From assembly GCA_964595645.1 (NCBI GenBank), contig CAZQQT010000001.1:32001-96000 (forward strand): a stretch of 64,000 nucleotides of DNA. The letters run 5' to 3'. Under the pieces are notes generated by a model. The model had not been told where the DNA came from, did not search any database, and worked only from the letters and a program-made list of their open reading frames with translations. Positions 53,223 to 60,408 of this stretch are shown in pieces. Position 1 is the first letter of the stretch, and each line of letters begins with the position of its first letter. The stretch comes from an uncultured Thermococci archaeon. Its GTDB lineage: Archaea; Methanobacteriota_B; Thermococci; Methanofastidiosales; B48-G16. The position numbers and the translations under genes are program-made.

Positions 53223-53777
53223 TTAGAGGCCAACGGACTCTGTCAAGTACATGAGTAGAAGAAAGAGCAGTGAGAGAAGGAGCATGACAATCCACGGATT
53301 GAGATGAAGCAGCTCTGGAATAGTTACTGGCCCCATCTCATTTTCGTGAATGAATGTCTCCCGTATTCTTGGGTAGACCGAAGCAAAAACGCCTGCACCA
53401 ATCATGATACCCACCACACCGATCATTGCATGAAGAGAGCCTGTCCCCATGGCACCAGCGGCTGTGCCGGGACAGTACCCAAGTAGCGCAAAGCCAGCAC
53501 CGAAGATGAGACCTCCACTAAGAATCGCCCTCACTCTGCACGGTTTGGGATGGAGCTCAGCATAGTCGAGTGTCACGAGGACATACAGCCCTATCATCCC
53601 TGTGATTACCGCAGTAGCGATTATTTTAAATACTCTAAAATCTTTCAGGAGAAGCTGATTAAGAATGAGGGAATACTCAGTTACACCACCCTTATCGAGA
53701 AGAAATCCAAATACAATGCCGATCCCGAAGCCAATGATGAGTTGCACTCTTTTCTTTTTGTGCAACGCTTCAAGCAT
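53223..53777 (-). CDS. YeeE/YedE sulfur-compound transporter, subunit B
   Basis: GIVFGFLL, GGLIFGAGFALLGYCPGT. Confidence 0.9.
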   Translation of the reverse strand: MLEALHKKKRVQLIIGFGIGIVFGFLLDKGGVTEYSLILNQLLLKDFRVFKIIATAVITGMIGLYVLVTLDYAELHPKPCRVRAILSGGLIFGAGFALLGYCPGTAAGAMGTGSLHAMIGVVGIMIGAGVFASVYPRIRETFIHENEMGPVTIPELLHLNPWIVMLLLSLLFLLLMYLTESVGL

Positions 53778-54293
53778 CTATCCACCTCCAAAAAGGAGGA
53801 ATGCGGTGAAGATTCCCCCGATGAAGAACATGATGAGTGCTAACCAGCTTCCTACGGCGAGCTGCAATGTCCCGCTAATACCGTGTCCACTCGTACAGCC
53901 ACCGGCCATCCGCGCGCCGAATCCAATGAGAATTCCGCCGATAAGCGCGGCGAAAAATCGCAAGATAATACTTCCACCAAATGTGTTGTTCCATAGCGTG
54001 GGGATCAGTTCAATTCTGAAACTTCCGGAAATGAGTGAGGAGAGAAATGCTCCAACCACAACACCGAGGACGAGCATCCACTCCCAGTCGATGGTTGGAA
54101 GAAACTCTTTGTAGTAGAGCCGTTCCTTTACTTTTTCACCACGTAGTGCCGTCTCAGTCATTCCTGCTGTTCGGGCGTATGCAGTGGAACATCCTATCGC
54201 CTTGTCAGACAATAGGAAGCTCAACCACACTAGCACACCGATCCCCATACCGACGACATAGGGTGACCACAGTTCCTCGAAAAGAGGATTCAT
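53778..54293 (-). CDS. YeeE/YedE sulfur-compound transporter, subunit A
   Basis: WSPY, IGCS, GFGARMAGGCTSGHG. Confidence 0.92.
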   Translation of the reverse strand: MNPLFEELWSPYVVGMGIGVLVWLSFLLSDKAIGCSTAYARTAGMTETALRGEKVKERLYYKEFLPTIDWEWMLVLGVVVGAFLSSLISGSFRIELIPTLWNNTFGGSIILRFFAALIGGILIGFGARMAGGCTSGHGISGTLQLAVGSWLALIMFFIGGIFTAFLLFGGG

Positions 54294-54333
54294 TGGATAG
54301 CCCGCCTGGACATCTCAGGTTTTGGTCAAAAAG

Positions 54334-54927
54334 TTAATGGAGTATTTCTGCAAATACTTCATGCGGCGTGATGCAGATATGTGGCATTATTTCTTTAAAC
54401 CCTTCTATTATCTCGGGGAGTTCGTGAAATTTTTCATGCGATTCTCTGTCTTTCCAGTAGGTTAACATCACGTACTCAGTAGGTTTAATTTTAATTTCTT
54501 CATACTCACCAGGAATCATTTCTCCACCGAATGATATATTTGTTGTTCTCACTACCTTTGTGCCGATAAATCCCTTCTTATCCATGGTTATTGTGCAGAG
54601 ATCCTCTACTTTTTCTTCAAATTCCTCTTCATGGCCCGGTTTGACTGAGAGATAGTTAACTGCTACGATAATGGGCTTACCAACGTATTCATAGTCGTCC
54701 AGTGTGGATGGTGGTATCTCCGAAGCATTTATGTCGTTTTCCGTGAGATACTTTACCGCCATTTTCGATCGCTTGGCTCGTGGACCACAGTAGACTTTCA
54801 CATCTTTATCCTTCAGAAAATCCAGATAGAACTCAAGATCCCATACTGGAATGTTCAATGCACCTTTTATATGGTTTCTATAGTATTCTTCTCTTGTTTT
54901 TACATCTAGAATCAAATCTTTTCCCAT
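54334..54927 (-). CDS. Rhodanese domain fused to a dimeric alpha+beta barrel (ABM/SOR-like) domain
   Basis: DVKT..EY..HIKGALNIP, YC47GPRAKRS, then VAVN..V.PG.EEEFE, C111, GFIG, YW...H164EKFH168, P.E190. Confidence 0.85.
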   Translation of the reverse strand: MGKDLILDVKTREEYYRNHIKGALNIPVWDLEFYLDFLKDKDVKVYCGPRAKRSKMAVKYLTENDINASEIPPSTLDDYEYVGKPIIVAVNYLSVKPGHEEEFEEKVEDLCTITMDKKGFIGTKVVRTTNISFGGEMIPGEYEEIKIKPTEYVMLTYWKDRESHEKFHELPEIIEGFKEIMPHICITPHEVFAEILH

Positions 54928-55073: not shown

Positions 55074-55394
55074 TTATGTATGCTCGAGTCCCTCAAGCAT
55101 ACCTTTCATATTCTCAATGTACTCCTTGAATGCCTTTCTCCCCGTGTCAGTGAGAGAGAGCATTGTGTGAGGTTTTTTATCGACGAACTCTTTCGTGATC
55201 TTGACATATCCCGCATCTTCGAGTTTACTGAGGTGTGAGGAGAGGTTCCCTGAAGTCAGTTCCGTCTGTCGTTTGAGAAAGAGGAAGTCCGCGCTTTCCA
55301 CGACGTAGAGATGTGCCATGATGTTCAGTCTGGCAGGTTCATGAATTGTCTTATCGATCTCTCCAATGGACTGAAGATCATCTTCGTGTGTCAT
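55074..55394 (-). CDS. Winged-helix (ArsR/MarR-like HTH_34) transcriptional regulator
   Basis: IHEPARLNIM, LTSGNLSSHLSKLEDAGYV, TDTGRKAF. Confidence 0.92.
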   Translation of the reverse strand: MTHEDDLQSIGEIDKTIHEPARLNIMAHLYVVESADFLFLKRQTELTSGNLSSHLSKLEDAGYVKITKEFVDKKPHTMLSLTDTGRKAFKEYIENMKGMLEGLEHT

Positions 55395-55974
55395 TGAATA
55401 CCTCCTTCGTTTTCAGACTAGGATATTTTCGAAGGAATCGAATAAACAGTCCCATTCCGATAGCCATCATTATAGTTCCCGGTATAGCATATGCTATGGC
55501 AGGAAGGGGTTGATCGAGGAGTTCTCCTGCCCCAAACGTTGCAGCTATCAATATTCCATATATATAAAGGCGTTTAAACTCCATATAGTATGCCACCATA
55601 CTGAAAATAAATGTTATCAGTATGAACATAAGCACACTCCTCACCAAGACCGAGAAATCGGGAAATAAGACCATCAGCACCGTACTTGTGACGAACACTG
55701 ATATGACGAGCCCTAGTATTAGCTCTGTCCGCTTTTTTTGTCGTTCGGGTCCAAACTTTACCCGCCCTAAGCGCGGAGTAGTAATCAGTTTTTTCCCTGC
55801 AACCATCCCTCCAACTGCCACGAATATGAGGAGCGTGGTATAGGGATTACCGGTGTATGTTCGAATTGCTCCTACCAGCATCATCATGCCAAAAAACATA
55901 TCCCACATACCGTCTTGGAAGTAAGAAGTCCACGCTTTTTTCTCGATTTCTTGTAGGTCAATACTCTGCGTCAT
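55378..55974 (-). CDS. Hypothetical multi-pass membrane protein
   Basis: YFQDGMWD, ITTPRLGRVKF, FLRKYP, about 6 TM segments, overlaps the HTH gene. Confidence 0.8.
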   Translation of the reverse strand: MTQSIDLQEIEKKAWTSYFQDGMWDMFFGMMMLVGAIRTYTGNPYTTLLIFVAVGGMVAGKKLITTPRLGRVKFGPERQKKRTELILGLVISVFVTSTVLMVLFPDFSVLVRSVLMFILITFIFSMVAYYMEFKRLYIYGILIAATFGAGELLDQPLPAIAYAIPGTIMMAIGMGLFIRFLRKYPSLKTKEVFNDTRR

Positions 55975-56070
55975 AAGTATCACTCACCTTCTTTTCTAGT
56001 TCTTTTATATTCATAGTTTCTGTCATTTTTTGTCACCTTTACATAACATATATCTTCGCCCTTTAAAATG

Positions 56071-58248: not shown

Positions 58249-60408
58249 TTACGCCAACGCACTTTCCTCTGTAGAGTCACGGCAGTAGAGACAGGCAGCA
58301 TTAACTTTTTCTATTCGTTGTTTCATGTCCATGAGAGAGAGTGAAAAGGGGAGATTGAACACATTCAGGTCGGCTTGAGGGGCCTCCTCCAAGAATTCCT
58401 CGAAATCTTCATCGACAACTAGCACTCTGTTGACGGGGATTCGGGCCATTTTCCCCAGTCGCTCCAGCTTCTCTCGGCCCGATGCGATTTCCTCCTCGCT
58501 GTCGACAACGGTAATAATGTTGAGCACACCTCCCCAGTTGATATGTAGTTTGTAGGCAATGAGAATTGCCAGATCACAGTTGGGAAGTTTCATTTCTGGC
58601 CCCCACGTGAGACAGTCATGCGGGATCCATAGGTTAATGGTATGCCGTCGGCCCAGCCCCGCTTCAGGATGGCCACCAAACAATGCAATTCCCGTTGTCA
58701 TTTCTCTTGCCTTGTCCAGCAATATGCTCATTTCATCGTTCATAGGGTCGCTCCGTGGCATCCGTAAGAATGTCACATTTGGGCTAATAGTGAGCGTTTT
58801 AATGTCTGCATTCCTATCGTAGCGTCTCGAGAAAATTTTTCCCCTTTCACTACCGTGTAATCGCTGTAAATACCATCCTCCCGAAGTTCTCGAGCGATGG
58901 ATTCTAAATGTGTCGGCATATTTTCTTCGTTGGTGGTATTGATACCGAGTATCGTGACGGAACCACGAGGAAACGCAATATCGCGGATGAGTTCCAGCAC
59001 ACCGCGTACTTTGGTGGATTTCTCAGTCGGAATTAGTAGATGAGGGCGCCACGCGCGCTCTTGGGAACGTGGAAGATGTTCTGATTTTTTTGCAGCCCAT
59101 TCAGCCAGTGCAACGAATAGACTACTCCGCACGTCTCCATAGGGTGTTTTCCTTTTCAGTGTCCGGTTCATCAGTATATAGTAAAAGACAACGACTACGA
59201 AAATAGCACTTAGGCTAAAGGTAGGGTTGATGATAAACATGGCGAACAAGCAACCTACTGTACCCACAAGAGGTACAATACGCGGTACTTTTAAAAGTGG
59301 GCGAAAACTCACGAGTTCTAGGCTCTGTTCAATGAGAATCACGAGATTCAGCATGGTGTAAGTTATCAGGAAGAACATGGTGATCAGGGGTGCGATAGTG
59401 TTTAACTCCCGCAGTAGCAGTGCTCCGATTGCGATGAGACCAGTGACGAGGACGGCATGTTTCGGTTCCCCTGTTTCGGAACGTCCGGACAGCCAGGAAC
59501 TTCCAGGTAGTACATTGTGTTCACCCATGGCTTGGAGAATTCGTGAGGCGCCCACCAGCGAGTTGAGCGCCGAGGAAAATGTGGCCGCCAATAGCCCGGC
59601 CAGTACCACCTCAGGGAGCCAGGCAATATCGATGAGGATCGTCAGGTTATCGATCAACGTTGACCGAGGAGCGGAGCCTGCCAGCCAGTAGGCGAGCCCT
59701 AGGTACACAATAACGCTGACACCAATCGCTGCTATGGTACCTCGGGGGATGCTCTTTTTTGGATGATGAAGTTCCCCTGACATGTTTGCACCGGCCATGA
59801 TTCCAGTAGCGGCTGGAAAAAACACTGCGAATACTGTCCAAAATGGATGTTTCATCCGTTGTTGGTACTGTGAGTGCAGGCGTTGAGGGCGGTCCTCCTG
59901 CAATCACCGATGCCAGTGATGCTATTACCACTGCCAAAATCACATACTGCAGTCGGAAGGATATTGCTGTACTGAGGAACACTAGCCCAAATAGAAAGCC
60001 GAATGCAACAAAATCAATCAATAAGGAGGAGAGATCAGGAAGTAGTATCCTGAGACCAGCTCTGAATCCAAAAATATACATGGCTGTTGATAGTGACAGT
60101 GAAAGGTAGAGGGGCACACCGATACTTCCTCCTACCTCTAGTCCAAGGGATCGGGAGATAATGGAGTAGGCACCACCGGATCCGATTTTCATATTGGTGA
60201 CAATTGAAGACATAGAGAGGGCGGTCAGACTTGTAATGAAAAAGGCCAGGAGAATAATAGCCCACGCGCCAACGACTCCCACCTTGCCCACTACCCACCC
60301 TAGACGCAGAAACATGATAACGCCTAAGATTGTGAGAACTGTGGGTACAAAGACACCTTGGAAGGTCCCGAACTTGGTTATTTCCTTCGTTTCTTGTTCC
60401 TCAGGCAT
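58249..60408 (-). pseudogene. APC/SLC12 (cation-chloride cotransporter-like) permease, split by two frameshifts
   Basis: FGTFQGVFVP..ILGVIMFLR, FFPAATGIMAGANMSG, WRPHLL. Frame breaks near 59845 and 58787. Confidence 0.82.

Follow-up and report, generated by a model that had tools for sequence, protein, structure and literature searches.

A rhodanese fused to a single sulfur oxygenase reductase-like domain beside a split yeeE pair in an anaerobic archaeon

The genes described here lie on the minus strand of a 64,000-nucleotide stretch of archaeal DNA (contig CAZQQT010000001.1; hereafter the window). The central gene (54334-54927, -) encodes P0001, a protein of 197 aa in which ORF translation and Pfam searches distinguish a rhodanese and a half-size relative of sulfur oxygenase reductase (SOR). 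Residues 1-81 (54685-54927, -; Pfam E 1e-6) form a short PspE-like rhodanese domain with Cys47 (codon 54787-54789, -) in a CX5R loop. Residues 82-197 (54337-54684, -) form a single ferredoxin-like domain related to SOR, as indicated by profile searches against the PDB and by structure alignment. Within this domain, Cys111 (54595-54597, -) aligns with SOR Cys31, the substrate sulfur site, and the three iron ligands of SOR also have counterparts: His164 (54436-54438, -) for His86, His168 (54424-54426, -) for His90, the two together forming an HExxH motif (54424-54438, -), and Glu190 of a PxE motif (54358-54360, -) for Glu114. Residues 128-149 (54481-54546, -) correspond to an insertion between strands 2 and 3 that is common to both SOR halves. 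The first-pass annotation had described a 197-aa fusion of rhodanese and SOR-like domains with C47, C111, H164, H168 and E190, all of whose codons were verified on the DNA. It had also noted spacings of 53/4/22 between the last four residues, compared with 55/4/24 in SOR, and these agree with the published SOR residues C31, H86, H90 and E114 (PMC7398979). Upstream of the fusion, a putative archaeal TATA-like box, TTTATATA (54985-54978, -), and a putative ribosome-binding-like site, AGGAGAGG (54941-54934, -), were read from the sequence. A scan with sigma-70 promoter models, which are bacterial and do not extend to archaea, gave nothing above chance.

The fusion is separated by 40 nt (54294-54333) from two YeeE/YedE halves, at the distance and with the IGCS, GCTSG and GYCPG motifs originally reported. 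Half A (53778-54293, -; 171 aa; PF04143 positions 172-309, E 3e-28) is PmpA-like, carries IGCS and GCTSGH, and covers the C-terminal half of the YeeE family, while half B (53223-53777, -; 184 aa; PF04143 positions 8-149, E 6e-19) is PmpB-like, carries GYCPG and covers the N-terminal half. Both are Sulf_transp proteins according to Pfam, their genes abut (53778/53777), and their cysteine motifs are conserved across linked loci, as in a split transporter of the PmpA/PmpB type. The arrangement resembles TsuA-TsuB and PmpA/PmpB in that a split YeeE with three conserved cysteines lies beside a sulfurtransferase. In those systems, however, the partner is TusA-like, whereas here it is a fusion of a rhodanese and a predicted iron enzyme, gene order and strand vary, and the halves of 171 and 184 aa are longer than those of PmpAB (about 130 aa). 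A winged-helix regulator (HTH_34) and a 201-aa membrane protein are encoded upstream on the same strand (55074-55983, -) and were absent at the 13 related loci checked. Further upstream, a cation-chloride cotransporter/amino-acid permease gene (58249-60408, -) has been split among three ORFs that overlap or abut (59647-60408, 58773-59903 and 58249-58776), representing either a frameshifted pseudogene or an assembly error.

Pfam placed Rhodanese at residues 4-57 of the fusion and gave its second domain an ABM score of 46.6 bits. The rhodanese fold, the DxR motif and the loop cysteine are all present, and the closest PDB match of this part is PspE (2jtq, Z 12.7), from which it differs by a one-residue loop insertion. 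At the DxR position, 41 of 71 members have Arg and 28 have Lys, as does P0001. The CX5R loop, which went unmentioned in the first-pass annotation, is thus one residue longer than that of PspE and departs from the six-residue CX4R loop of sulfurtransferases. A census of 299 members found CX5R in 87 and CX4R in 209, the basic CX5R loop being restricted to the yeeE-linked clade. This is the loop length of phosphatases and arsenate reductases, and it marks Cdc25 and the arsenate-reducing rhodaneses (PMC10135228).

The family comprises at least 245 proteins, the large-database homologue search having covered lengths up to 345 aa. Pipelines at present label such proteins rhodanese, ABM or HmoA, and these were the source names of the homologues found in Thermoplasmatota and Bathyarchaeota; Hadarchaeota are also among the carriers, whose habitats are sediments and vents. 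Among 170 non-redundant full-length members, C47, R53, T156, W158 and H168 are invariant, and C111 (169), H164 (169) and E190 (168) nearly so. The conservation of C111, H164, H168 and E190, proposed earlier as a check, is therefore at least 168/170 at each position. Degenerate members are few and include one with Cys111 replaced by Tyr (L008:5001-5585), and frameshifted or split copies also occur (L005:6001-6589, G495:C18 and G215:C48). A literature search, to which subscription journals were mostly inaccessible, found no paper on a family of rhodanese-half-SOR fusions. The fusion is thus not described so far in the literature searched, and it belongs neither to SOR nor to the persulfide dioxygenase-rhodaneses.

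The relationship of the second domain to SOR was assessed against that to ABM proteins. Searched against the PDB, the family profile retrieved SORs as its top 11 matches (E 4e-14 to 1e-11) and aligned with the SOR N-half over positions 7-115, with C31, H86, H90 and E114 in register. Among ABMs, the strongest match had E 3e-5 over 42 positions. In 401 Thermoplasmatota genomes, the same profile matched solely family members and proteins of 306-321 aa, five of which scored as SORs with the NCBIfam SOR model (520-600 bits), while ABM matches were present in 129 of these genomes. A profile of the SOR N-half gave the family a median of 16 bits, SOR C-halves 2 and ABMs 0.6, and a profile of the C-half gave the family 15 bits, N-halves 1 and ABMs 4. 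Judged by these profiles, the rhodanese-fused family is nearer to each SOR half than the halves are to each other. A profile built from ABMs likewise gave the family a high score (22 bits), and one SOR half scored no better (26-33 bits) than the best ABMs (27-29 bits), both of which argue against a specific link to SOR. All 59 members tested pass the ABM Pfam cut-off. The isolated domain scores 25.8 bits with the SOR Pfam model PF07682 (cut-off 25). A PF07682 search of the host genome gave no match and was uninformative, as its controls were silent too.

Residue-level and structural comparisons add to this picture. The loop between strands 2 and 3 spans 22 residues in the fusion, 23 in one SOR half and 44 in the other, but 4-5 in 17 control ABM proteins; the insertion of 18 residues is present in both SOR halves and missing from 17/17 controls, none of which has Cys or His in the Cys and two His columns. 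SOR N-halves have the identical residue at 14 of the 19 family-invariant positions, C-halves at 9-10 and ABMs at 3-9. The heme-ligand histidine of the 'AH' motif, which follows the start of the third helix in controls taken to be HmoA-like, aligns with Phe177, in a column that is Phe or Tyr across the family. AlphaFold2 models had a pLDDT of 92.6 for the whole fusion and 92.7 for the isolated domain. All 116 domain residues align with SOR 2cb2 at 2.0 A, a full coverage obtained with SOR only, and the TM-score normalised by the query is 0.79-0.84 for SOR versus 0.73 for the best ABM. Z (15.6 for ABMs vs 13.5 for SOR) and Foldseek E-value nevertheless put ABMs first, which counts against the SOR assignment, and structure ranking was therefore rejected as a sole discriminator, with ABMs leading in Z and E-value and SOR in coverage and TM-score. 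The check first proposed, whether the domain scores better with SOR than with generic ABM proteins, thus has a divided outcome: profile, insertion, TM-score and coverage favour SOR, whereas Z and Foldseek E-value do not. That the protein is a one-repeat SOR relative with the catalytic set, as first suggested, is borne out by the profile, the in-register alignment and the invariant positions, and we regard SOR homology with a retained metal site as highly probable.

By family rules, P0001 is no SOR, since the NCBIfam model NF047630 gives it 17.8-18.9 bits, far under the cut-off of 400. In common with SOR (EC 1.13.11.55; PF07682, NF047630; 2cb2, 6m35, 9rdn), it has the fold of one repeat, the strand 2-3 insertion and, as assigned by alignment of sequences only, counterparts of Cys31, His86, His90 and Glu114, together with N9, T34, T78, W80, E87 and P112. 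SOR, however, consists of two tandem ferredoxin-like repeats (about 308 aa) assembled into a 24-mer in aerobic sulfur oxidisers, whereas the fusion has one 116-aa repeat, is a predicted dimer, carries a rhodanese and occurs in anaerobes. A conserved counterpart of SOR C101/C104, R99, the chimney (125-152) or the pore methionines (Met296/Met297) was sought in the family alignment and none was found.

A homodimer prediction for two copies of the domain scored 0.58, compared with 0.03 for the best control, thereby passing a mark reached by 20/30 solved homodimers and 1/23 single chains; runs agreed in 92% of contacts, with pLDDT of at least 85. Dimers are well known among ABMs, so the high score may stem from resemblance to ABM dimers of solved structure. 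The modelled interface includes C111, H164, H168 and E190, and the insertion (residues 128-149) extends to the partner pocket, where its residues 131-132 contact E190 of the other subunit (109-51 and 109-50 in domain numbering). The insertion stretch resembles the SOR C-half (S132, P149, Y152) and the catalytic residues the N-half. This double likeness could mean a homodimer in which each subunit does both jobs, the insertions capping each other's pocket to give, in the model, a two-lobed barrel like the eight-stranded one of SOR, whose lobes are its two repeats.

The host genome (G000), 99.96% complete, encodes two NiFe hydrogenases and a cysteine synthase above cut-off. Heme-copper oxidase, bd oxidase and MCR were sought in it and none was found, although controls were detected; lacking terminal oxidases, the host is an anaerobic archaeon, as had been supposed. 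A neighbourhood survey of the family covered 120 loci, collapsed to 72 groups. The split yeeE pair adjoins the fusion in 20 groups, being divergent from it in 8, convergent in 5, downstream in 4 and upstream in 3, all within the window's clade (26 full-length rows, SH-aLRT 99), and none was found near other clades in the 72 groups. Since the pair lies on the opposite strand at 13 of these 20 loci, co-transcription is not conserved, and a conserved three-gene operon was rejected. The yeeE link put forward from the window is therefore real, as far as this one clade is concerned, but does not extend to the others or to a common strand. All 12 of the 401 genomes with this clade carry a yeeE orthologue, and 12 of the 13 with the orthologue carry the fusion, a count that overstates independence because the genomes are kin; fusion and yeeE also co-diverge (Mantel rho 0.41, p 0.0025, again among non-independent kin). 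Among 34 genomes of its order, the host alone has the fusion or a yeeE orthologue, and the nearest homologues of its fusion are from Thermoplasmatota (79%), which suggests, from sequence comparison, that fusion and yeeE pair may have been acquired together through transfer. In 8 groups, the fusion has a gene for a lipoamide/mycothione-type FAD disulfide reductase nearby.

In a separate clade (9 groups), the fusion gene lies within operons for rubrerythrin, peroxiredoxin, ferritin, superoxide reductase, flavodiiron protein and sometimes KatG, with varying gene order and gaps mostly below 20 nt. All of these loci belong to one clade and thus represent a single event. They point to defence against O2 or reactive sulfur rather than to simple import. 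One such carrier has a 1,437,090-bp chromosome with KatG and superoxide reductase; we take it to be Aciduliprofundum sp. MAR08-339, a cultured vent archaeon (cf. PMC8773360), in which case the physiology could be tested. The host of the window has a closely similar oxygen-defence operon (G000:C9:7989-13303; Lrp, superoxide reductase, ferritin-like protein, rubrerythrins, flavodiiron protein and peroxiredoxin), here without a fusion. At G000:C8:39153-43685, this genome pairs sulfurtransferase and oxidative-stress genes a second time: a pair of rubrerythrin-like genes runs convergently towards two genes for multi-rhodanese proteins of 471 and 295 aa. In the Bathyarchaeota-containing clade of L008, the fusion is often followed immediately by a small DUF202-like membrane gene, as at L164:4470-4874 and a further 29 loci, with a gap of mostly 2-47 nt.

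Both contexts, sulfur transport and O2 defence, would fit an O2-consuming persulfide oxygenase. We therefore favour, with somewhat more confidence than doubt, the reading of the fusion as a homodimeric non-heme-iron sulfane-sulfur (persulfide) oxygenase of the SOR type that has its own sulfur carrier. In this scheme, all the chemistry of which we infer, Cys47 would take up sulfane sulfur from thiosulfate, polysulfide or a small persulfide and pass it to Cys111, probably across subunits. Fe(II) held by His164, His168 and Glu190 would activate O2, and the sulfur would leave as sulfite or thiosulfate, with or without release of sulfide. The split YeeE of the window's clade might move substrate in or product out, and the neighbouring FAD disulfide reductase may recycle a small thiol. 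In anaerobes, the fusion probably serves to clear reactive sulfur when oxygen enters sulfidic habitats, and it would consume O2 in doing so. In SOR, the iron ligands H86, H90 and E114 and also C31 are each essential, whereas C101A and C104A retain about 10% activity (PMC7398979); the family keeps exactly the essential set, which counts for an SOR-type oxygenase. CstB, which joins a rhodanese to a non-heme iron O2 domain and converts persulfides to thiosulfate (PMC12934615), provides a precedent for this architecture. The persulfide dioxygenase-rhodaneses (S. aureus CstB; 3r2u, 3tp9, 5ve4) follow the same plan, with iron being predicted in the fusion, and their rhodanese domains are detectably similar to its own; their iron domain, however, is a metallo-beta-lactamase and that of the fusion an SOR/ABM-type ferredoxin-like fold, so that they are analogues and not homologues. 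Several findings argue against the oxygenase reading: the hosts are anaerobic and lack terminal oxidases whereas SOR needs O2, the C101/C104, R99, chimney and pore features of SOR have no counterpart, the CX5R loop of P0001 is as long as that of phosphatases and arsenate reductases, the O2-defence loci come down to a single event, and 43 of the 72 locus groups, many of them short contigs, have neither yeeE nor an O2-defence context.

Other explanations account for part of these observations. The fusion could be an anaerobic sulfur acceptor that serves assimilation or trafficking. Thiosulfate brought in by YeeE would be cleaved by the rhodanese, in the way that TsuB acts for TsuA, and the sulfur would then be kept in the SOR-like domain or given off as sulfide without O2. 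The close co-occurrence and co-divergence with yeeE, the requirement of TsuA for a sulfurtransferase partner (PMC11582611), a host with cysteine synthase and no oxidases, and a basic loop, seen in the yeeE clade alone, that could accommodate an oxyanion are all in keeping with this possibility. It nevertheless appears unlikely to us, as it leaves unexplained the invariant 2-His-1-Glu site and the clade in O2-defence operons, most family members have no yeeE, and the host has a separate tusA-dsrE pair (L221:1059-1722). A general oxidative-stress protein, handling O2, superoxide or peroxide or repairing thiols or Fe-S clusters, with inorganic sulfur not the substrate oxidised, would be at home in the superoxide reductase, rubrerythrin and peroxiredoxin operons of varying gene order and near the methionine sulfoxide reductase-like genes at three loci (L008, L073, L076); the invariant rhodanese cysteine, a sulfur enzyme as closest characterised relative, and the yeeE, tusA and dsrE neighbours, all indicative of sulfur, make this decidedly improbable.

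For the window's clade, the CX5R loop (87/299 members, yeeE clade only), being typical of Cdc25 and arsenate-reducing rhodaneses (PMC10135228), might instead reflect action on another oxyanion such as selenite or arsenate, YeeE then transporting selenium or a metalloid, and a YedE-like protein does carry selenium in Methanococcus (PMC11582611). We give this very little credence, considering that, among solved structures, the rhodanese domain comes closest to the thiosulfate sulfurtransferase PspE, that the SOR site is unchanged in the clade, and that no recurrent ars or sel genes were found among the neighbours. Least credible of all is an ordinary heme-degrading or cofactor-free oxygenase domain of the ABM/HmoA type with a convergent likeness to SOR. 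ABM proteins (PF03992; TT1380, IsdG/HmoA, SnoaB) have the fold, clan, Pfam cut-off and dimer type in common with the fusion, ABM exceeds SOR in Pfam score, ABM structures come first by Z, and the branch separating SOR-like domains from ABMs has a support of just 67/18. Against this stand the insertion, Cys and both His, which the control ABMs lack, 14 of 19 invariant residues in common with SOR, the SOR N-half profile (16 bits, ABMs 0.6), the full 116-residue alignment with SOR only, and Phe177 in the 'AH' histidine column.

If the persulfide oxygenase reading holds, sediment and vent archaea (Thermoplasmatota, Bathyarchaeia, Hadarchaeota) would gain a sulfur-oxidising or O2-scavenging activity. 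SOR is a 24-subunit shell of aerobic sulfur oxidisers in which the roles of Cys31 and of the shell are still debated (PMC7398979), and a 22-kDa relative with the four SOR-essential residues and a built-in sulfur donor would allow both questions to be tested on a small protein. The origin of the family was addressed with a tree of 41 domains, in which long branches meet. It grouped the family with the SOR N-half (support 82/86), and AU tests rejected neither an N+C clade, which is the pre-duplication topology (p-AU 0.23), nor family monophyly (p-AU 0.40). Of the earlier description as a pre-duplication-like SOR relative, the single-repeat relative therefore stands, while the pre-duplication part can be read either way. 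It is conceivable, though on balance doubtful, that the fusion represents the living single-repeat ancestor of SOR, a two-site homodimer fed by its rhodanese that scavenges O2 in anaerobic archaea at the expense of sulfane sulfur. It would then stand at the origin of SOR and would add a branch to the oxygen defences of anaerobes, alongside superoxide reductase, rubrerythrin and flavodiiron proteins.

Half-SORs also occur on their own. P0110 (126 aa) has the same four residues and is encoded directly upstream of tusA and dsrE (L025:1197-2266); a search for its close relatives returned P0110 alone, and plasmids gave no match. Bacterial clusters of 122-125 aa in the Atlas had SOR matches on 38-54% of their members. 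At L025, the gene order recalls an rhd-tusA-dsrE2 cluster in which the half-SOR takes the place of the rhodanese.
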